Of a DNA stretch of 64,000 nucleotides, positions 192 to 59,120 are shown piece after piece. The DNA is taken from positions 93,752 through 157,751 of IMG/VR virus record IMGVR_UViG_3300037461_000469; one strand, given 5' to 3'. The first letter of the stretch is position 1; every line of letters starts with the position of its first letter. The notes beneath the pieces were generated by a model. It had not been told where the DNA came from and did no database searches. It worked only from the letters and a program-made list of their open reading frames with translations. The DNA is from a virus. Lineage: Duplodnaviria > Heunggongvirae > Uroviricota > Caudoviricetes. The position numbers were made by a program, and so were the translations under genes.

Positions 192-752
192 CTATTTAGG
201 AGATTTATCACTTTTCTTCAAATTCTCTTCAGCCCACAAAGGCTGAAGATTTGTGTAGTGGCAGGCTTTTAGGAATTCTTCTCTGTTCGTTAAGTCGAAA
301 GAATCCAAAGGTTGAATGTGGTCAATATGCCACCCATGAATACCCCAATTCTCCCAATTCATTCCTTCTTGAAACTTCAATTCTAAATAAAGTTTAAATT
401 CGGAGATAGAACACCCAAGGTCTCTAACTGCGGAACCTGATTTTTGGTTGTTTTTAACAGCATGATACATTCTAGTTCTTAAATTACTAATAAGTTTATA
501 ATTAATATCTGTTTTTTTCCGTTTGTAAAAATATTGATTTGTTATTTCTTTATTATTTTGTCGATATTTTTTACATTGTAACAATCTTTTTTCTTTATTT
601 TGTTGATACCAAATTTTTGAGTATAATTTTTTCTTTTCCCTATTATTTTCGTCATATATTTTTTGTCGAATTAAAATTTGTTCTCTATTATCAATGTATC
701 TCTTTTTGATTGCTTCTTTCCTTTCTTCTTCTGTAAAATATTTTTTCCTCAT
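192..752 (-). CDS. HNH endonuclease (free-standing, paralog 1 of 3)
   Basis: GWHIDHIQPL...HYTNLQPLWAEENLKK HNH core after a Lys-rich helical N-terminus; AT-rich; GGAGG RBS. Confidence 0.85.
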   Translation of the reverse strand: MRKKYFTEEERKEAIKKRYIDNREQILIRQKIYDENNREKKKLYSKIWYQQNKEKRLLQCKKYRQNNKEITNQYFYKRKKTDINYKLISNLRTRMYHAVKNNQKSGSAVRDLGCSISEFKLYLELKFQEGMNWENWGIHGWHIDHIQPLDSFDLTNREEFLKACHYTNLQPLWAEENLKKSDKSPK

Positions 753-757
753 CTCAA

Positions 758-850
758 ACCTCCGACTAAGTTTAATTTATTGTAGGTAATTTGAAAAGAG
801 TCGGCTTTTCAAAAAGGGTTGCATCCCCTGTCCCTACACTATTATTTATT
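758..850 (-). ncRNA. Structured cis leader RNA of endonuclease gene, copy A
   Basis: Outer arms 781-786/833-838; inner hairpin 791-798/805-812; loop CCGACT (minus) complementary to AGTCGG overlapping the RBS (762-767); ATAAATA at 843-849. Confidence 0.7.
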
Positions 851-873
851 GTTTTTCGTCATTTTTTGTGTTT

Positions 874-912
874 AAAAAAATGGCCCCTAATTATTAGTTA
901 AGGGCCATTTTT
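874..912. terminator. Intrinsic terminator
   Basis: aatggccc...gggccatt inverted repeat with A/T runs on both sides, downstream of 923..1654. Confidence 0.75.
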
Positions 913-19496: not shown

Positions 19497-20246
19497 TTAG
19501 TGCCTGTATTGTGAAAGTTGATTGATGACTCTTCCGAAATTCTTCTTGGCTTCTTCTATCTTCAGCGGGGCGATAGGCTTGACAGGAGTTATCACTTCCA
19601 AAGCCCGTTCAAGGGCTTCAATCGGCACTACGTAGATACGGGAGTTGATTTTGCTGAACTTGTATCTGCGGTAAAAGAGTACTTTATCCGACATCTTTTT
19701 GCGGATGTAGTCGTAGATGGAATCTGAAGTGTAGGACTTGCGGAAGATGTGGCGTTCCTCTCCCAAAAGGTTCTTGACCTTCATCGACCCTCTCATCATC
19801 TTCTCGGAGTGGATTTCGGTCTTGCGGAAAAATTCAAACAGTCGCTTGCGCTCACCTGTTGAAAGGTATTGCAGAGAGATACCTTCTAAGGTGTTGTATC
19901 GTGGGTCAGTCCCCACGTAGAAAACTATCGGGGTGGGAACGTGGTCGTAGGATGAGTAGGCAAAGACGTAACAATTGCCTGGGACGATTTGGGTTCGGCT
20001 GACGGGAATCAGCAGTTCGGTATTGTAGTAGCGGAGAAGAGGTCGGATTTTCTTCTCTCGTTTGAGTTTCTTAGCCTCTTCCAATCTAATTGCTTTTTTC
20101 TGTTTTTCTAATTCCGCTTTTTCAATTGGTTTTTGAGGAAGTTCTTTTTGTTGTTTTCTTGCTGCTAAGGTTTTAAGGTCTTGTTCAGTTAAAGGAGTTG
20201 AGGGGGCTACAGGATATGGATATTGATTTTGGTTTGTATCGGCCAT
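19497..20246 (-). CDS. DNA end protector, T4 gp2-like
   Basis: PGNCYVFAYSSYD..P.P...EGISLQYLS resembles gp2 PG..Y.F.YD...GINLHYL. Confidence 0.6.
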   Translation of the reverse strand: MADTNQNQYPYPVAPSTPLTEQDLKTLAARKQQKELPQKPIEKAELEKQKKAIRLEEAKKLKREKKIRPLLRYYNTELLIPVSRTQIVPGNCYVFAYSSYDHVPTPIVFYVGTDPRYNTLEGISLQYLSTGERKRLFEFFRKTEIHSEKMMRGSMKVKNLLGEERHIFRKSYTSDSIYDYIRKKMSDKVLFYRRYKFSKINSRIYVVPIEALERALEVITPVKPIAPLKIEEAKKNFGRVINQLSQYRH

Positions 20247-20253
20247 TCTACTA

Positions 20254-20874
20254 TTATTTAGTACCTTTCTTTGTATTCTCTTCAGCCCAAAGTGGTTGAA
20301 GGTTTGAATAATGATTGGCTTTCAAAAATTGAATTCTATCTTGAAGGTTGAAAGATGCTAGGGGTTTAATGTGGTCAATATGCCACTCACCCCAATTATC
20401 CCAATTCATTCCTTCCTGAAATTTGGATTCTAAGTGTGTTTTGAGTTCAGGAACAGAACAACCTAAGTCTTTGACTGCGGAACCTGATTTTTGGTTAGAG
20501 TGTATGGCTTTTCGTAGTCTGTCTCGTAAACTAACAGCAATTTTATAATTAATGTCAGTTTTTAATCTATTACTTTGGTATTTTTTATCATAGATTGCTT
20601 TTTCTTTTTTATGATTTTTATTATATTTTCTTTGTTTCAATAAATATTTTTCTTTATTTGTTTGATAACGAATTTTATTTTTTCTTAATATCTCATTTTT
20701 ATTTTTTTCATAATTTTTTCTTTTTCTTAATTTTATTTTTTCTTTATTTTCTTTTTCGTATATTTTTCTTTTTTTTAATATTTCATCTTTATTTTCTTTA
20801 TAATATTCTATAGATGTATTTTTTATTTTTTCTTTATTCTCTATATAATATCTTATATTCTTTTCATCTGCCAT
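20254..20874 (-). CDS. HNH endonuclease (paralog 2 of 3)
   Basis: KTDINYKI..LR.R...QKSGSAVKDLGCS...WHIDHIKPL...HYSNLQPLWAEEN; very AT-rich. Confidence 0.85.
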   Translation of the reverse strand: MADEKNIRYYIENKEKIKNTSIEYYKENKDEILKKRKIYEKENKEKIKLRKRKNYEKNKNEILRKNKIRYQTNKEKYLLKQRKYNKNHKKEKAIYDKKYQSNRLKTDINYKIAVSLRDRLRKAIHSNQKSGSAVKDLGCSVPELKTHLESKFQEGMNWDNWGEWHIDHIKPLASFNLQDRIQFLKANHYSNLQPLWAEENTKKGTK

Positions 20875-26331: not shown

Positions 26332-28947
26332 TTACACTCCTAGTTTTTGCGTTACCGCTTTTTTCTTTTTGATTCGATTGACGATGTTCAACTTGCTCTT
26401 GTCAACCAACTGCGTCTTCGCTAGGAAGAGTTTGTAGTGCAAGTCCTCGTCAATCAGTTGGATTTTCTTCACCAAAAAATCCTGAAAATATTTGTCGTAA
26501 TCGATTTCGAATTTCAGGTTCAGTTCGGGGTCGTAGTGAATGATTTCTCGGTGGTCTTTGACGAACAGGATGTTCACCGTCTCGCCCCGCTTGATTGTCG
26601 TGTTGGAATTGCGGATGGCTCGGACGTGTTGAACCCCTGTGTCGTACTCTTCCATCCTCTTGCTCATCTTTTTGCGGATAACAAGGTCGATTGCCGACTG
26701 ACTCTTCAGGTCAACCTTGACCTTTTTGCAGAACGCCCTGAGTGTCTCCACGTCCCCGTAGTGGGTCAGGATGGTACTGTACAGGTTCATCAGCACCTTC
26801 TTGAAGAAAGTTGGTGTATCGTCCTTGACGGCTTCGAAGCCCTTGATGTACAGTCGCTCTTCCTTCAAGACCTTGCCTTTGAAGTACTTCAAAAATCCGA
26901 CTTGCTTTTTCTTTGCGGGAGCAAGCAGAAGTTTGGAAAACGACTTTTCGAACACGGTCTTCATAATGTGCGAGTCGAGAACCTTCCTGTTCTTGGTGAA
27001 TTTTTCCAAGAACTCAGGTAGTCCTTTGTTGAACAAATCCTGCAAGGCTTTCGACTTGTCGATGGTCTGCTCAAAACTGTCGGCTTCGATTTTGATAAAG
27101 ATGGAGTCCGTGTCTCCCGTCAAAATCCTGTAGCCCTGTTCTTCTGCGGCGTTCTTGACGTAGCGCAACGTTTCACGGGCAACGTAGGTAACGCAAGCCG
27201 CAACCCGTTGGTCGTAAAGGATAAATCCTCTGTAGCCTAGAACGCCGTACAGGGCGTTGCAAGTTGCCTTGAAGCACGATTCCATGTCGTTGACGATTTT
27301 AAACTCTTGCGAGTTCCCATCGAACTGCATTTTGCGCTGAGTAAGTTTGTCCCGTTCGTTAATCAGCAGTTGCGACAGTTGCGGAACCACACCACGCTTT
27401 TTCGTGGTGAACATGATTTTGCCGATTTTGATGTCGGTCTGCGGGTCGTAGTCCTTCAACTCTTCGATGATGGTCTCCTTCGAAAGATTGAGCGAGACCA
27501 TGATGGTCGGGTACAGGCGTGAGAAGTCGTACACCGAAACGTTTTCGAACAGCCCTGGCACGGTGTCCAACACCAACGCCCCTTCGAACGTGCTGTCCAA
27601 GTTCTGCTTGTGTTTCGAAGGGAACTTGAACTGCTTGAAGCGTTGGTGAATCAGCGTTTCCAAGAAGCGGCTGTTGAAGTAGACGTTTTCGTAGGCTTGC
27701 GGAGCAATCTTCTGATACAGCATCGGGAACTCGATAATTTTCTGCATCTGTGCGATTTTCTCGGTAAGGTAAACGTCCTGAACGTTGTACTTAATCAACT
27801 TGGTCAGGTCGTTCTCTTCCCACAACACGTCCACGCCTTCGTGTTCGATTTTCTTTTCGTTAAACAAGTGCTTGGCTACGGCATCCAACGTCCACGCAAT
27901 CGGCTTGTTCTCCACGATAATCCACTTGGCGTAACGAAGGTAGTCCCACAGGATTACTTCGTGGCAGTAGTAGGATTTTTCGCCGTCCTTGCCGATGCTC
28001 TCGTAGACTTCGGAAAGAAACGGCGTGAAGTCCACCTCCAACTTTTTGCTTCGGTGCAAGAGGTAGGGGACATCGAAGAAGTCGGCGTTCCAACCGCCTA
28101 GCAAGTCCACTTCCAACTTCGCCATCGCCGCAAAGAAGTGGGTGAGCATCTTGGCTTCGTCTTCGAACTCAAAGATTTTCTCCGTCTTGAACTGCGACTT
28201 GTCGTAGGTTTGGTCGTGTCGCTTCTTCAAAATCCACACGAAATTCTTGTCGTAGGTGTTGACGTAGGCCACGATGGAAACGATTGGCTCAGGCGTGTTG
28301 ATTGTGTCGAGCGACAGGTTCGTTTCGATGTCGAACGTGGCGTAGGTTAGCAGTCTCGTGTGGGCGATGTTCGGGTAGTTGTCGAAGTAGAACAAGTCCT
28401 TGGAGCGCAAGTGGTCTTCGTAGGTCTGCTCAAAGGTCTGATACTCTTTCGGCACTTTCTTCAACCGCTTGCCATCGTAAGAGAGGAACTCGCCGTCAGG
28501 GTCGGCAACGTACTTGATGTTCGCCTTGTGCGTGTTCCTAGCCTTGATTTTCTTGAAGTCGAGATTCCGATAAAAGTATGCCTTGTCCGTAACTCGGACG
28601 AGTGCGAAACGGGAGAAGTAGTTGTTCAACTTCTCCCGCAACTCCTTGATTTTGGTTGTGGCTTCCTTTTTCTCGGTCTTGTCGTAATCCTTGTAGTTTT
28701 TCAGAGAGACGAACATCTGCCCGTCTTGGTCTTTGAAAAACTTTCCAAAATCCTTGTCGGGGAATTTGCGGTAAAGCAAATTCGCTCCAAACAGAACAAC
28801 TAGGTTTGCGTCCAACCCTTTCGCATCAGCCTCAAAAACGTGGCTGTAGACTTGCGGGTTGAATTTTTTCAACAACTTCGTTTTGATGAAGTCATCGTTC
28901 TTCCCAAATTGTTCCTTCTCTGAAACGAAAATAATATGTTTAGACAT
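26332..28947 (-). CDS. Family B DNA polymerase with 3'-5' exonuclease (gp43 role)
   Basis: Exo DIETN, GWNADFFD, YNVQDV; Pol YDFSRLYP, KATCNALYG, GDTDS; no intein-sized insert. Confidence 0.95.
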   Translation of the reverse strand: MSKHIIFVSEKEQFGKNDDFIKTKLLKKFNPQVYSHVFEADAKGLDANLVVLFGANLLYRKFPDKDFGKFFKDQDGQMFVSLKNYKDYDKTEKKEATTKIKELREKLNNYFSRFALVRVTDKAYFYRNLDFKKIKARNTHKANIKYVADPDGEFLSYDGKRLKKVPKEYQTFEQTYEDHLRSKDLFYFDNYPNIAHTRLLTYATFDIETNLSLDTINTPEPIVSIVAYVNTYDKNFVWILKKRHDQTYDKSQFKTEKIFEFEDEAKMLTHFFAAMAKLEVDLLGGWNADFFDVPYLLHRSKKLEVDFTPFLSEVYESIGKDGEKSYYCHEVILWDYLRYAKWIIVENKPIAWTLDAVAKHLFNEKKIEHEGVDVLWEENDLTKLIKYNVQDVYLTEKIAQMQKIIEFPMLYQKIAPQAYENVYFNSRFLETLIHQRFKQFKFPSKHKQNLDSTFEGALVLDTVPGLFENVSVYDFSRLYPTIMVSLNLSKETIIEELKDYDPQTDIKIGKIMFTTKKRGVVPQLSQLLINERDKLTQRKMQFDGNSQEFKIVNDMESCFKATCNALYGVLGYRGFILYDQRVAACVTYVARETLRYVKNAAEEQGYRILTGDTDSIFIKIEADSFEQTIDKSKALQDLFNKGLPEFLEKFTKNRKVLDSHIMKTVFEKSFSKLLLAPAKKKQVGFLKYFKGKVLKEERLYIKGFEAVKDDTPTFFKKVLMNLYSTILTHYGDVETLRAFCKKVKVDLKSQSAIDLVIRKKMSKRMEEYDTGVQHVRAIRNSNTTIKRGETVNILFVKDHREIIHYDPELNLKFEIDYDKYFQDFLVKKIQLIDEDLHYKLFLAKTQLVDKSKLNIVNRIKKKKAVTQKLGV

Positions 28948-29521
28948 TTTCTAAATTTTTTCTTCTTGATGCGTAAGATGATATTGCTCGTTGTTTGGCC
29001 TTTTCAGGATGAGTTTGCCAAAATATTTGATTTTTCTCATTACGTTGTTTTAGTTTTTCAGGGTGATTTTTCCAAAATATTTTTTGTTTTTCCCCTCTAC
29101 TTTCTACTTCAATCGGATGAGTTTTATCGTAATATTTTTTTCTTTTACTTTGTTTAATTCGTTCTTCTAAATTTTTATAAAATATTTTTTTAGTTTTACT
29201 TATTTGTTGTTTCGTTATTTCGTGATGATGTTTGTTTTTTTGTCCCCCACTATCAAGATTATAACCATTGGGTGTGATTGTATTTAATTCTTTTATTAAA
29301 AAACTTTCTGTCCAATCTAAATCTTTTTCGGGACAAGAGAAGAAAATCCATTTGAAATTTTCAGTTCCATATTTTTTAATAGCACTATCAATCAAAGGAC
29401 AATATTTGTAAGTTTCGTGTTCATAAATTCTTTGTTTTAAATTTCTACTTGTTTGCCCAATATATTGTTTTCCGTTTTGTAAATTAATAACGATATAAAT
29501 AATTCCGCAATTCTTATCCAT
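28940..29521 (-). CDS. GIY-YIG homing endonuclease
   Basis: GIIYIVINLQNGKQYIGQT...R..EH...AIKKYG...GYNL; start set at the ATG after the GGGAGG RBS. Confidence 0.88.
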   Translation of the reverse strand: MDKNCGIIYIVINLQNGKQYIGQTSRNLKQRIYEHETYKYCPLIDSAIKKYGTENFKWIFFSCPEKDLDWTESFLIKELNTITPNGYNLDSGGQKNKHHHEITKQQISKTKKIFYKNLEERIKQSKRKKYYDKTHPIEVESRGEKQKIFWKNHPEKLKQRNEKNQIFWQTHPEKAKQRAISSYASRRKNLENV

Positions 29522-29525
29522 TCCA

Positions 29526-29617
29526 ACCCTCCCGTAGTCGAAAATAGTGTAGGTAATCTTGGGAAACGGGAGTTCCCAAGAAAAGGTGCTACCTTTCGTC
29601 CCTACACTATTATTTAT
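29526..29617 (-). ncRNA. Structured cis leader RNA, copy B
   Basis: Outer arms 29544-53/29601-10 (10 bp perfect); hairpin 29558-65/29573-80; loop CTCCCGT (minus) complementary to ACGGGAG at 29529-35; ATAAATA at 29611-17. Confidence 0.75.
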
Positions 29618-29843
29618 TGTCTTCAAACTGTTCTGTAGTAAAATAAAATCTGCGACAAGTGTAAGATTTAGGTAAAATTTCTTTAAAATATGAACAAGTG
29701 GAACAACAGGTACTTTTTAATTCTGGAAAATGGATTAATACAAATTCCATACCGTTGAGTTTAAAAAGACCCTTCTGCTTGGAGTCCATCTTGTCCACGA
29801 GTGGGCAAGGGTCATAAAGGCTTTCGTTTTTATTTTTAGCCAT
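29610..29843 (-). CDS. Small Cys-rich protein, possible divergent member of the adjacent paralog array
   Basis: CPLVDK...H...CCSTCSYF; own promoter motif at 29863-29873. Confidence 0.6.
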   Translation of the reverse strand: MAKNKNESLYDPCPLVDKMDSKQKGLFKLNGMEFVLIHFPELKSTCCSTCSYFKEILPKSYTCRRFYFTTEQFEDNK

Positions 29844-32214: not shown

Positions 32215-32499
32215 CTAAACAGTTGGTAGGACTCTCTTGATTATCCGTTTTTTCTTCTTTTTTGCCCCTAAAGGCATCTTGTCGATGGCTTGTTTTCCGT
32301 CTGCGGTTGCCGTGGGGAATCCTGCGCCTGCTAGGGTTTGTTCTTTTACATCCTTTTTCTCTTTCTCGGCTTTTTCTTTCTCGTCCGCTACCTTTTTCTT
32401 GTAGTCTTCCCATTCCTTATTTTTTTGGAAATGCTTTTGTAAAGCCCCTGCGCCGTATGACCCTTTTCGTTTGCGTTCGATTACTCTAAACTTTGCCAT
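32215..32499 (-). CDS. Small basic late protein
   Basis: 94 aa ORF; late motif at 32505-32511. Confidence 0.55.
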   Translation of the reverse strand: MAKFRVIERKRKGSYGAGALQKHFQKNKEWEDYKKKVADEKEKAEKEKKDVKEQTLAGAGFPTATADGKQAIDKMPLGAKKKKKRIIKRVLPTV

Positions 32500-32507
32500 A
32501 CTATTAT

Positions 32508-33368
32508 TTATTGTTTGAGGCGGTGCAGTTCGGCAACAAATCCCACGAAGTTAATTTCCTTGTCCACGCACAGAGCGTCCTGATAAGCGTACTTCGCCAA
32601 CAGGATTGCCTTCTGCGGGTCTTCCGTCCTTTCGAACAGGAAGCGATACAGGCCATCGTAATCCGTGCTGTGTCCCGCAAAGTACCGTTTCAATTCTACG
32701 ATGTTCCCACCCTTGATGATTTTCCAAATCTCTCCGAACGTCTCTTCGGGCAGTTCCAACTTCCCCGACATCGAATACCGCTGAAGGTAATTCAACGCCC
32801 TGCGCAAGTCTCCCCCGCACAGGCGGTAAACCGTATCTAGGGCTTCGGGTTCGTACTTAACCTTCTCCTTTTCAAGCACTCCTTTGAGGTACTTTAGCGT
32901 TTCCTCCTTGGTTGGCTTGGTGAAGTTAAACAGCGTACAGCGGCTTCGGATGGCTTCGCTAAATTTATAAAGATGATTGGTCGCAAAAATAAAACTTACT
33001 ACTTTGTGATACCTCTCAGTTATTTCTTTAAGGGCTTTCATCGCATCTGGAGATAAATTTTCACTTTCATCCATAAAAACTATTTTTCTCTTAGAATTAA
33101 ATGCCTTGACTTGGATGAAATCTTTTATTTGTCCACGAACAACATCAATTGACCTATCATCACTACCATTTAATCTTAAATATTCAGCGTCTAATTCTCG
33201 AATAAATATTAAGGCTGTAGTTGTTTTTCCGACACCTGGTGGACCGTAAAAAATTAGATTTGGAATAAACTTGGATTGTAAATATTGCTTAAAAGTATTT
33301 CGTTGTTCTTCCGAAAGTATCATTTCATCTAAATTTTTAGGTCTGTAAAATTCATTCCAAATTTTCAT
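32508..33368 (-). CDS. Clamp loader large subunit, T4 gp44 / RFC-like AAA+
   Basis: WNEFYRPK, GPPGVGKTT, NGSDDR.ID, DE, SRC motifs; start at ATGA overlap with endonuclease stop. Confidence 0.93.
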   Translation of the reverse strand: MKIWNEFYRPKNLDEMILSEEQRNTFKQYLQSKFIPNLIFYGPPGVGKTTTALIFIRELDAEYLRLNGSDDRSIDVVRGQIKDFIQVKAFNSKRKIVFMDESENLSPDAMKALKEITERYHKVVSFIFATNHLYKFSEAIRSRCTLFNFTKPTKEETLKYLKGVLEKEKVKYEPEALDTVYRLCGGDLRRALNYLQRYSMSGKLELPEETFGEIWKIIKGGNIVELKRYFAGHSTDYDGLYRFLFERTEDPQKAILLAKYAYQDALCVDKEINFVGFVAELHRLKQ

Positions 33369-34021
33369 TTTTCTAAATATTCTCCTATCCAACCTTTGTG
33401 ATGTGGTCGTTTATTTTTAAGTACATCACAAATATGACCTCTATTTAAGTCGTGTTCTTTACAAAAAAGAGAATAAGATTTTATTTCATATTTTTTCCCT
33501 TCAGGAGAAATTAATCTGATTAATTTGGCTCGTGGGTGTAATTCCCCTCTGAAATCTGCGTGGTTATCTTTCATATGTTTTTTGTGTAATTCTGACTTAG
33601 GGCCTTTCATTTTTTCAATTGCTTTTAAAGGTCTGCGGATTCCTGTGTATTTTTCTTTCAATCTTTCTTTAATCTCTTCTTTACATTTTCTACCCAAACA
33701 ACCATTACCACCCTTTGTTAAATTCCACCCTGTTCTTTGTTCGGGGTCGTAGGTCTTTAATTCATCAATCCAAAACATTTCTCTTTCGTCTAAAATAAAT
33801 TTGAGATTTTTTGGGACTTCGTGATGAACCTCAATAACACGAAAACATTTTGGTTGAAAATATTTTCTCAAAGAGTTATGGAAATGGAAATTTGAATTTT
33901 TCGTTGTGAAATGTTCTTTTATTCTTCTTTTTAAATTTACGGCTTGGCCTACATAACCTTTACCACTAATCGTAAAAAGGTAAATGAATCCCCAAATCTT
34001 TTTATTTTCGTCTTGGTTCAT
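33365..34021 (-). CDS. GIY-YIG homing endonuclease with NUMOD-type C-terminus
   Basis: GFIYLFTISGKGYVGQA..L.RR.KEH...GWNLTKGG; C-terminal NRGHICDVLKNKRPHHKGW. Confidence 0.85.
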   Translation of the reverse strand: MNQDENKKIWGFIYLFTISGKGYVGQAVNLKRRIKEHFTTKNSNFHFHNSLRKYFQPKCFRVIEVHHEVPKNLKFILDEREMFWIDELKTYDPEQRTGWNLTKGGNGCLGRKCKEEIKERLKEKYTGIRRPLKAIEKMKGPKSELHKKHMKDNHADFRGELHPRAKLIRLISPEGKKYEIKSYSLFCKEHDLNRGHICDVLKNKRPHHKGWIGEYLEK

Positions 34022-34025
34022 TTGG

Positions 34026-34117
34026 CCCTCCACTTGGTCAAAATATAGTGTAGGTAATTCAAAATGAGTGGACATTTTGAAAGGGTAGCAACTCCTTGTC
34101 CCTACACTATTATTTAG
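34026..34117 (-). ncRNA. Structured cis leader RNA, copy C
   Basis: Outer arms 34045-54/34101-10; hairpin 34058-66/34073-81; loop TCCACT (minus) complementary to AGTGGA at 34029-34 in the RBS; CTAAATA variant at 34111-17. Confidence 0.75.
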
Positions 34118-40465: not shown

Positions 40466-41095
40466 TCACTTTACCCTCTTTCCTTTTTCTAAATTCTCTC
40501 CAGCCCACATCGGTTGAAGATTTGTGTAGTGGTTGGCTTTCAAAAATTCTTCTCTGTTTTGAAGGTTAAAGGATACTAGGGGGATAATATGGTCAATGTG
40601 CCAACCTTTAAAGCCGTAATTTTTCCAACTCATTCCATCTTGAAATTTGGATTCCAAGTAGAGTTTAAATTCAGGAATAGAACACCCTAAATCTCTAACT
40701 GCGGAACCTGATTTTTGACTATGTTTTATTGCTATTCTTAATCTATTGCGTAAATAATGGGCCAATTTAAAATTAATATCCGTTTTTAATTTACGATTAG
40801 TGTTGTTTTTTGTGGATATTGCTATTTCTTTTTTATGTGTTTTTCTCCATTCCTGCATCCTAGATTTTATTGTTTTTTTATTTTTTTCATAATATTCATG
40901 TTTTTTTCTACTTATTTCTTCTTTATGAATATCACGATATTTTTTAGATTTTTCTATTTGTTCTTTTTTATTTTTTTCGTAATATTCATGTTTTTTTTCA
41001 TTTATTTCTTTTTTATGAAGTTTGCGATATTTTCTAGATTTTTCTATTTGTTCTTTCCTATGTGCTTGATAATATTCTTTGTATGTTTTATTCAT
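40466..41095 (-). CDS. HNH endonuclease (paralog 3 of 3)
   Basis: Same C-terminal core as 192 and 20254 ORFs; 30-aa tandem duplication KKEQIEKS.KYR..HK.EI..KKHEYYEKN. Confidence 0.85.
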   Translation of the reverse strand: MNKTYKEYYQAHRKEQIEKSRKYRKLHKKEINEKKHEYYEKNKKEQIEKSKKYRDIHKEEISRKKHEYYEKNKKTIKSRMQEWRKTHKKEIAISTKNNTNRKLKTDINFKLAHYLRNRLRIAIKHSQKSGSAVRDLGCSIPEFKLYLESKFQDGMSWKNYGFKGWHIDHIIPLVSFNLQNREEFLKANHYTNLQPMWAGENLEKGKRVK

Positions 41096-41103
41096 ACTAC
41101 TAT

Positions 41104-41520
41104 TTATTGTTTTGCGTTTTCATTATCGTCCCAAAGCAAGAAAAGGATACAACAGAGTGCATGGGCTAGGTGGTTTCTCCCTGATTCGGGGTCGAGCCGT
41201 TCACCCATGAACCACTTCGTCAAATGTCGCATCGATGCGGCAAAGTAACGGGTTCTCCGATTCGGGACGTGTTGCCAATTGTTGTCAGCGTACTTCTTTG
41301 CCCCGAAGGTCAGGATATCGACAATCTCCGATACCTCTTCCCACGGGAGCAAGTCCCACCGTAATTTTTCTCCGTCAAATTTAATTCCTAATTCTCCGTT
41401 CTTTGCTTTCCTTCGCAGTTCTTCCTCTTCCTCAGTAAAAGTCAGCCTTTCTGTAGGAGGATTCCCCGAAGGCTCAGGTCGAGAGTGTGTTATTGACTTT
41501 TCTAAATCTTCAACTTTCAT
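41104..41520 (-). CDS. dATP/dGTP diphosphohydrolase domain (DUF5664-like)
   Basis: K.D..KLRWDLLP...L.FGAKKY..NNW...RH...GE..DPESG..HLAHA. Confidence 0.85.
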   Translation of the reverse strand: MKVEDLEKSITHSRPEPSGNPPTERLTFTEEEEELRRKAKNGELGIKFDGEKLRWDLLPWEEVSEIVDILTFGAKKYADNNWQHVPNRRTRYFAASMRHLTKWFMGERLDPESGRNHLAHALCCILFLLWDDNENAKQ

Positions 41521-58377: not shown

Positions 58378-58404
58378 TGTCGGCCTCCTACTGTATTTAT
58401 TGTA

Positions 58405-59025
58405 TCACAGTTTGTTTCTTTTCTTTTTACTCTCTATCATTCTCAATTTTGCTTCTTTTTCCATTGGTTTTCCTTTGTTCCAAGGTGTTTGTCCTTTGTG
58501 TGCTATGGACATATTTTTCCTATGCTCTTCTGATAAAGTTTTCCCGAACCAATATTTTGGACTATGTAAAGATTGTAAGTTTTTTGTTTCTTCGGAATGT
58601 CTTTTGCCACAAAAACCACCAGATGTTCCAAACATAGGATTGTTAGAATTTGAAACATTGGCATGGTTTTTTGACATATTTATTTTTGCTTTTAAAGATG
58701 GTTCCCATCCCAAATTTCCATCGCCGCCGTTTGTCAAATTTAAACATTCCCAATCAACAAATTCTTCTTTTTGTTTTTTCAACCAATCTATTTCAGCCTG
58801 CGGCAATTCTTCTTTTGTAGAATAAACAGCAAGTACTTCCCAAGTAAAACTATCCCAACCATATTTCCTAATAAATCTATATAATTTATGTTTTAATTTT
58901 CTTTTAAAAGCATCACTTTTGTGAGAACGTTTTCTGTTGGATAAGCCCCTAATAGAATATCCAATATAAAAACACTTTCTTACTTCGTTCTTTGCTTTGT
59001 AGATGATATTTCTTACTTTATCCAT
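58405..59025 (-). CDS. GIY-YIG homing endonuclease with NUMOD3 repeats
   Basis: IIYKA...YIGYS...RK.SH...IRKYG...LNLTNGG; HSEETK and LSEEHRKNMS NUMOD3. Confidence 0.88.
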   Translation of the reverse strand: MDKVRNIIYKAKNEVRKCFYIGYSIRGLSNRKRSHKSDAFKRKLKHKLYRFIRKYGWDSFTWEVLAVYSTKEELPQAEIDWLKKQKEEFVDWECLNLTNGGDGNLGWEPSLKAKINMSKNHANVSNSNNPMFGTSGGFCGKRHSEETKNLQSLHSPKYWFGKTLSEEHRKNMSIAHKGQTPWNKGKPMEKEAKLRMIESKKKRNKL

Positions 59026-59029
59026 TTCT

Positions 59030-59120
59030 TCCTCCGTGTAAAGAAAATATAGTGTAGGTAATTCAAAACCCACGGAGGTCTTGAATGGGTAATTACTCCT
59101 TGTCCCTACACTATTATTTA
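59030..59120 (-). ncRNA. Structured cis leader RNA, copy D
   Basis: Outer arms 59049-58/59105-14; hairpin 59062-70/59077-85; loop TCCGTG (minus) complementary to CACGGA at 59033-38 in the RBS; CTAAATA variant. Confidence 0.75.

Follow-up and report, generated by a model that had tools for sequence, protein, structure and literature searches.

Why do several nuclease genes of one phage carry nearly the same leader RNA of roughly 100 bases, in which a single loop differs from copy to copy and always matches the ribosome-binding site (RBS) of the gene that follows? We examined this question in a window of 64,000 nucleotides (the whole stretch of DNA analyzed), which belongs to an IMG/VR record of 168,828 bases. 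The DNA polymerase of the source phage is about 22% identical to those of T4-like cyanophages. Our analysis suggests that the leader is probably a cis-acting mRNA element that keeps free-standing homing-endonuclease genes poorly translated. The arguments for this reading, and for the others that we weighed, are given below.

Four copies of the leader had been described in an earlier note made from the window alone, and all of the parts that it listed were found where it had placed them: TAAATA, the strands UAGUGUAGG and CCUACACUA, GAC, a small hairpin, an 8- to 9-bp hairpin, and (A)UUA. That note had put the fourth copy on the minus strand, which is correct; the first three, which it had not marked as minus, are on the same strand, as is every gene of the window. 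Each copy reads in the order of an A-rich stretch, the TAAATA box, ATAGUGUAGG, the GAC junction, and the small hairpin P2, followed by the hairpin P3, whose stem and loop are both copy specific, then (A)UUA and CCUACACUA. About 10 bases later come a GGAGG-type Shine-Dalgarno (SD) sequence and the AUG. P2 was found in every copy with a varying sequence, and single-sequence folds recovered a three-way junction in all four window copies. A fifth, more divergent copy lies beyond the window; its P1 helix is GUGAAG/CUUCAC, its loop is CCUAACU, and a GIY-YIG gene stands downstream. The coordinates are collected in Table 1.

Table 1. Leader copies, their parts, and associated genes in the window and, for the fifth copy, elsewhere in the source genome (G000)
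Feature	Position	Strand	Basis or detail
Start codons of the genes of copies 1, 2, 3, and 4	752, 29521, 34021, 59025	-	
Copy 1 leader	750..848	-	L3 CCGACU 799-804; target AGUCGG 762-767 in P4 loop
Copy 1 P4 arms	768-775 and 754-761	-	fold
Copy 1 gene, HNH/endonuclease VII-like nuclease (P0001)	192..752	-	phrog_1035, E = 1.1e-9; HNH-type C-terminus
Copy 2 leader, TAAATA box to start codon	29519..29616	-	covariance model score 100.6 bits
Copy 2 putative late-type promoter core TAAATA	29611..29616	-	upstream context AAGACAA
Copy 2 predicted transcript start G	29605	-	from three window genes with ATG 0-3 nt after TAAATA-N-TAGT
Copy 2 P1 5' strand UAGUGUAGG	29601..29609	-	partner 29545-29553; inner pairs covary in divergent copies
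Copy 2 P1 3' strand CCUACACUA	29545..29553	-	partner 29601-29609; covariation count
Copy 2 P2 hairpin AAAGGU/ACCUUU	29582..29596	-	fold and covariation count
Copy 2 P3 hairpin	29558..29580	-	loop L3 CUCCCGU 29566-29572; both-side changes in 8/9 P3 pairs
Copy 2 P4 hairpin	29521..29543	-	5' arm 29536-29543; loop L4 29529-29535; 3' arm 29521-29528
Copy 2 kissing target ACGGGAG	29529-29535	-	identical with L4
Copy 2 SD GGGAGGG	29527-29533	-	divided: part in P4 loop, part in P4 3' arm
Copy 2 gene, GIY-YIG homing endonuclease	28940..29521	-	Pfam PF01541, E = 1.5e-8
Copy 3 leader	34019..34116	-	L3 UCCACU 34067-34072; target AGUGGA 34029-34034 in P4 loop
Copy 3 P4 arms	34036-34042 and 34021-34027	-	fold
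Copy 3 gene, GIY-YIG endonuclease with NUMOD-like domain	33365..34021	-	domain match
Copy 4 leader	59023..59120	-	L3 UCCGUG 59071-59076; target CACGGA 59033-59038 in P4 loop
Copy 4 P4 arms	59040-59046 and 59025-59031	-	fold
Copy 4 gene, GIY-YIG endonuclease with NUMOD3	58405..59025	-	domain match
Fifth leader copy, beyond the window	G000:C1:161704-161815	-	covariance model
TAAATA-N-TAGT-started genes without SD	32499-32510, 41095-41106, 20246-20260	-	ORF 32215-32499; HNH gene 40466-41095; ORF 19497-20246

The leader recurs in related uncultured phages. An exact 14-mer scan of viral contigs yielded about 35 further copies, and a covariance model was built from 28 copies. With this model, 5 copies were found in the source genome, and the strong matches (E below 1e-3) in three related records, among them a complete 223-kb genome, numbered 11, 9 (including a truncated one), and 7. 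The search of phage genomes with such a model, which the earlier note had proposed, returned 84 matches, 56 of them distinct, across the collected loci and related uncultured-phage contigs. A metagenome scan gave 30 stretches. When the 14-mer of the 3' strand was used against viral contigs, the matches listed comprised only chance matches and one known copy. The leader had no blastn match in 50,697 cultured-phage records, the locus had no megablast match in cultured phages, and a scan of bacterial genomes gave no motif matches. The earlier note could name no family for the leader, and we found none either: a search of the window against Rfam release 15 gave no match when gathering thresholds were applied, and when E values up to 10 were allowed, the four loci returned noise, with nothing on the element above 19 bits and no support for a link to int-alpA. 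Hammerhead, pistol, and tRNA-like folds were ruled out by eye on their junction lengths and by the lack of Rfam matches, and full-text literature searches found no description of the leader.

P1, P2, and P3 form a three-way junction in which 97.8% of the cells of the model alignment are in standard pairs, compared with 42 to 52% paired in controls with slid partners. Both sides had changed in 15 of the 20 pairs of these helices (8 of 9 in P3), a count that none of 500 shuffles reached. These values bear out the three-way junction of the earlier note and answer its concern that a larger alignment might lack significant covariation. The outer part of P1, UAGU/ACUA, is almost invariant, and the inner part covaries in divergent copies (UAGG/CCUA, AGA/UCU, AAG/CUU, AGG/CCU, and AAA/UUU). 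G-U pairs are abundant in all three helices. Because these would be A-C mismatches on the opposite strand, the fold is that of the sense RNA.

The model alignment sets the target of the P3 loop in three registers, and the contact was hence scored by a script that compared the whole loop with the stretch preceding the start codon, for the 54 copies that are intact and distinct. The P3 loop, 5 to 7 nt in length, was fully Watson-Crick complementary to bases at the 5' edge of GGAGG in 53 copies, and the 54th differed by one G-U pair. These copies held 40 different loop sequences, and with the loop partners permuted, full matches averaged 1.8 and never exceeded 8. For the window copies, the complementarity of the loops CCGACU, CUCCCGU, UCCACU, and UCCGUG to AGUCGG, ACGGGAG, AGUGGA, and CACGGA at the 5' edge of the SD sequence, as the earlier note had reported, was confirmed in every case. 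The sole complete copy in which the match failed (L077/L265) has lost its RBS and gene, and another failure is a copy cut by the end of its contig.

In the best downstream fold with the target kept unpaired, a fourth hairpin, P4, encloses the target in 52 of the 54 copies. Its 5' arm is the linker after P1, and its 3' arm is the remaining SD sequence with the spacer, often up to the A of the AUG. The stems of P4 vary widely across copies with pairing retained, and a contiguous stem of at least 5 bp was present in 70% of copies, against 15% after shuffling. When pairs in the kiss and in P4 are counted together, 38 of 49 copies had all five SD bases paired, and another 10 had four of them paired. 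The fold, its covariation, and an occluded SD sequence are what computation has shown. By nearest-neighbor folding, which cannot score kissing complexes, P4 alone had a mean energy of -3.2 kcal/mol and the loop-loop duplex a mean of -7.7 kcal/mol. Because P4 encloses the target and the SD sequence is paired in the kiss or in P4, we interpret the arrangement as an intramolecular kissing complex that would lock a weak RBS hairpin. The earlier note had proposed a junction with a pseudoknot. Its long-range covarying contact on the RBS stands, but the pseudoknot with a free strand does not, since the target is predicted to lie within the loop of P4, as in a kissing-loop lock and not a plain pseudoknot. 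In the GIY-YIG class (34036-34042/34021-34027; relatives L229 and L276), P4 carries an internal purine-purine mismatch, which changes from A/G to G/A among relatives and is not repaired.

The four 3' bases of the P3 loop showed an entropy of 1.7 to 1.9 bits, as high as that of random flanking DNA. The corresponding values were 0.05 to 0.5 bits for P1 and the junction strands GAC and UUA and about 0.85 for the P2 and P3 regions. Between copies with identical P3 stems, the loops differed in 26 of 28 pairs. Within each genome the loops are all different, although the absence of identical pairs, against an estimate of about 2 expected, is not significant. Diversifying selection on the loop was considered and is not established, as age together with the freedom to covary can explain saturated loops. 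The cores of paralogous leaders differ at 4 to 8 of 63 positions, and because such near-identical cores carry proteins that are only 52 to 69% identical, the paralogs must be old. Given this age, what calls for an explanation is not a rapid change of the loop but why the core is so extremely conserved, whether by sequence-level constraint or by gene conversion. Conservation of the core beyond the identity of the proteins points to strong selection on the leader. The P2 and P3 stems of old paralogs are also more conserved in sequence than structure alone would need, which could reflect a bound factor or gene conversion.

The same loop code was found with unrelated genes (L031 and L068). Because one code occurs with unrelated nuclease families, recognition of the loop by the cognate nuclease is disfavored. 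The conserved unpaired bases of the junction are only GAC(A) and UUA, about 7 in total, and where a second "parking" site for the P3 loop was sought, only scattered chance matches at inconsistent positions turned up. The suggestion of the earlier note that the leader is a switch responsive to a protein or ligand found no support: there are few conserved unpaired bases in the junction, no alternative partner of the loop was found, and the code is common to unrelated nucleases.

The earlier note also placed the leader after a late-promoter motif, and the genome agrees with this. The same box, TAAATA, usually after AAAACA[A/C], lies 15 to 30 nt upstream of the portal gene and of several open reading frames (ORFs) in the portal/capsid-gene region, and it would fit a T4-type late promoter. 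The sequence TATAAATA showed no enrichment in the source genome. TAAATA-N-TAGT occurs at 14 sites in the genome, namely, the 5 leaders and 9 others. At these nine sites an ATG follows immediately in five and within 1 to 3 nt in two more, and it is the first start codon of the window ORFs at 32499, 41095, and 20246 (with three bases between in the last). Two further sites of this kind lie beyond the window (G000 70353, plus strand, and 84683, minus strand). The three window genes lack an SD sequence and appear to be transcribed into late mRNAs that are leaderless or nearly so; in a T4-like phage this would be unusual. One of them, the HNH gene at 40466-41095 (minus strand), is a paralog (P0002) of the copy 1 gene; its promoter box is fused directly to the ATG, and the three-way junction, P4, and SD sequence are missing, as if the leader had been cleanly deleted.

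Because the ATGs sit 0 to 3 nt past TAAATA-N-TAGT, transcripts are expected to start six bases after TAAATA. This is the usual geometry in T4. The transcript of the leader would then start at the G of GUAGG (about G27), and transcripts from its own promoter would keep only the 4 or 5 inner, covarying pairs of P1; the full P1 would form only in read-through transcripts. In about 38 of 48 copies, the end of the upstream ORF is no more than 30 nt from P1, often within the box, so read-through transcription is expected. About 25 nt upstream of the promoter box of copy 1, a GC-rich hairpin with a U-run (873-909, minus strand) looks like an intrinsic terminator; most other copies have no such terminator, and the upstream ORF directly abuts them. 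Counted from the TAAATA box, the P3 loop is about 40 nt downstream and P4 about 70 nt downstream. An internal promoter was also considered, as some linkers of the HNH class resemble the box (AATAAATT), but the resemblance is inconsistent across copies, and no consistent second box was found between P3 and P4. Because the late-type promoter stands upstream of the entire inhibitory structure, the choice of promoter cannot remove the lock.

The genes behind the leader were assigned to GIY-YIG, HNH/endonuclease VII-like, phrog_3339/DUF7487, and phrog_1271 families. As a shared module, the leader core is found before nucleases of no fewer than four families (GIY-YIG, two HNH types, and DUF7487). 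Chimeric leaders also occur, in which the same loop code is joined to another P2 or another ORF family. The decay-stage loci (L077:8839-8951; G002:C1:123933-124033 [L257]; L231, L235, L239, L243, and L253) include an orphan leader without RBS or gene, a leader that is truncated after P3 and fused mid-frame into an HNH reading frame, and several intact leaders before nuclease ORFs reduced to 15 to 50 codons. In the related complete genome, the same leader as that of copy 2 stands at a nuclease ORF shortened to 50 codons. The copy 2 gene itself shares 8 nt (28940-28947) with the start of the DNA polymerase gene. Promoter-like boxes were seen on the minus strand right after the stop codons of the copy 1 nuclease (183-196, CUAAAUAGAGUAGAG) and the copy 4 nuclease (58384-58404, ACAAUAAAUACAGUAGGAGG), the latter serving the next gene. 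The nuclease cassettes seem to be bracketed by late-promoter boxes, with copies 2 and 3 having no downstream box.

We propose that the leader would work as follows. A late-type box, AAAACA[A/C]TAAATA, would be followed by P1, GAC, P2, P3, and UUA, with the weak P4 downstream. The P3 loop would pair base for base with the loop of P4 and form the intramolecular kissing complex, with the four variable loop bases serving as a private code of each copy. The 5' half of the SD sequence would then lie in the kissing helix and its 3' half, with the spacer to the AUG, in the 3' arm of P4, and because both halves are so placed, the 30S subunit would find no free SD sequence. P4 alone is probably too weak to block ribosomes, and the kiss would be the lock. 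A strong promoter and a consensus SD sequence under a permanent brake would be wasteful, which hints at an unseen mechanism of relief.

Such relief is the core of a different reading, in which the leader is a regulated switch and the lock opens under a defined condition. Read-through transcripts with the full P1 of 9 to 10 bp might behave differently from own-promoter transcripts (from about G27) with 4 to 5 bp, ribosomes terminating on the upstream gene might disturb the structure, or a phage or host factor might act on the conserved junction. P1 is indeed predicted to pair less often in the short form (mean probability, 0.61) than in the long form (0.89), the nearness of the upstream ORF means that read-through and terminating ribosomes at P1 are expected, the core is far more conserved than the proteins, and T4 times I-TevI translation by transcript form. 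However, unlike in T4, the P3 loop, P4, and the SD sequence all lie downstream of the predicted start, and both transcript forms would hold the complete lock. The lack of a conserved alternative partner for the loop and of a second promoter between P3 and P4, the few conserved junction bases, and the absence of an Rfam riboswitch match also speak against a switch, which we regard as possible but rather unlikely. A bolder version, in which the leaders are orthogonal, re-programmable riboregulators whose three-way junction senses an input as a "reader" and, in response, switches the 4-base kissing code private to each nuclease mRNA open or shut, is doubtful. If it were true, the junction could be reading the form of the transcript, translation upstream, or a factor from phage or host, and the code might diversify under selection, for example, to escape cross-repression during coinfection or to penalize recombinant leaders.

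The remaining readings are less probable still. Control could act on mRNA cleavage or lifetime, with the stacked P3-kiss-P4 helix (about 22 to 25 bp) as a site for a double-strand RNase or with a 5'-terminal P1 protecting the mRNA. P1 would indeed stand at the extreme 5' end of own-promoter transcripts, and RNase E processing has been reported near T4 segB, T4 segG, and Aeh1 mobE; but a pure nuclease site would not require a covarying contact exactly on the SD sequence in every copy, and we consider this unlikely. We give very little weight to the idea that the P3 hairpin, from a processed or orphan leader, acts in trans to repress nuclease mRNAs that match it, in its own phage or in one that coinfects, with its variable loop acting like the incompatibility codes of plasmid antisense RNAs. 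Fully complementary loops of 5 to 7 nt are the classical geometry of antisense kissing, the loops within a genome all differ, and orphan leaders exist. Nevertheless, a partner for every loop lies in the same RNA at a distance of about 35 nt, so that the cis contact will dominate, the lack of identical loops within genomes does not reach significance, and the G-U pairs place the fold on the sense strand. The least probable reading, to which we assign almost no credence, is a DNA-level module without any RNA role, that is, a conserved promoter cassette at which nuclease cassettes recombine or insert, in the manner of PeSL elements. It accounts for a leader common to unrelated genes, for the chimeric leaders, and for the promoter-like boxes after some nuclease genes, but recombination homology cannot account for 40 compensated loop-target pairs, compensatory changes in P1 to P4, and strand-specific G-U pairs. 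A role in recombination may well exist in addition to the role of the RNA.

Homing endonucleases are harmful if overproduced, and those of T4 are the textbook case of a hidden ribosome site. The leader would reach the same end by a different, more elaborate design, a junction-scaffolded intramolecular kissing lock that behaves as a portable module before unrelated nuclease families. With 40 loop codes, each compensated in nature, the comparative proof of a tertiary RNA contact is unusually clean, and the codes offer a ready-made library of translation locks, possibly orthogonal, for synthetic biology.

Several known systems resemble the leader in part. In T4-type phages, PeSL cassettes consist of an early promoter and a terminator stem-loop (PMC2839356, PMC4122927). 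Like them, the leader is a short conserved regulatory cassette that is repeated in the genome before unrelated variable genes and is likely a site of modular shuffling. PeSLs, with their early, sigma-70-type promoter and terminator, are not tied to nucleases, whereas the leader has a late-type box, no U-tract after P1, four helices, and a covarying contact with the SD sequence. In the Guanidine-II (mini-ykkC) riboswitch, invariant ACGR loops bind the ligand and the kiss turns translation on (PMC9300104). There, as in the leader, two neighboring leader hairpins kiss through their loops and the kiss governs access to the SD sequence. In place of two hairpins with conserved ACGR tetraloops, however, the leader has hypervariable, fully complementary loops of 5 to 7 nt in 40 sequences, and its kiss covers the SD sequence itself.

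Loops of 6 to 7 nt that pair over their full length are known from plasmid antisense systems (ColE1 RNA I/RNA II and R1 CopA/CopT) and from HIV TAR-TAR*, where they join two molecules. As in the plasmid systems, the loop letters of our leader form a code for specificity and vary over retained stems; unlike in these systems, one mRNA carries both loops, separated by about 35 nt. The primary transcripts of type I toxin genes (hok, tisB, and aapA1) are translationally inert; they hide the SD sequence by long-range pairing in the leader, are activated by RNA processing, and have an antitoxin RNA as partner. The SD sequence of a harmful protein is likewise hidden by long-range leader pairing in our case, in which neither a defined activating processing step nor an antitoxin RNA was seen.

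The closest likeness is with the RBS hairpins of T-even phages. The earlier note had given it as established that T4 homing endonucleases are damped in this way, and reviews document an RBS in a stable hairpin for T4 I-TevI, I-TevII, I-TevIII, and segB and for Aeh1 mobE, with a late promoter so placed that late transcripts miss part of the hairpin (PMC2988022, PMC3014915). Both systems are found in T4-like phages at nuclease genes, with a consensus SD sequence buried in RNA structure, a late-type promoter just upstream, and the gene within read-through transcription units. T4 uses a single stable hairpin with the late promoter in its 5' arm, from which late transcripts escape. In contrast, the leader combines a weak RBS hairpin with a kissing lock from a three-way junction, its promoter lies upstream of the whole lock and not within an inhibitory 5' arm, and one conserved family is common to many unrelated nuclease genes. 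Altogether, the leader most likely acts like the known brakes on T4 homing endonucleases but is built differently, so that it would hold whichever promoter the transcript came from.
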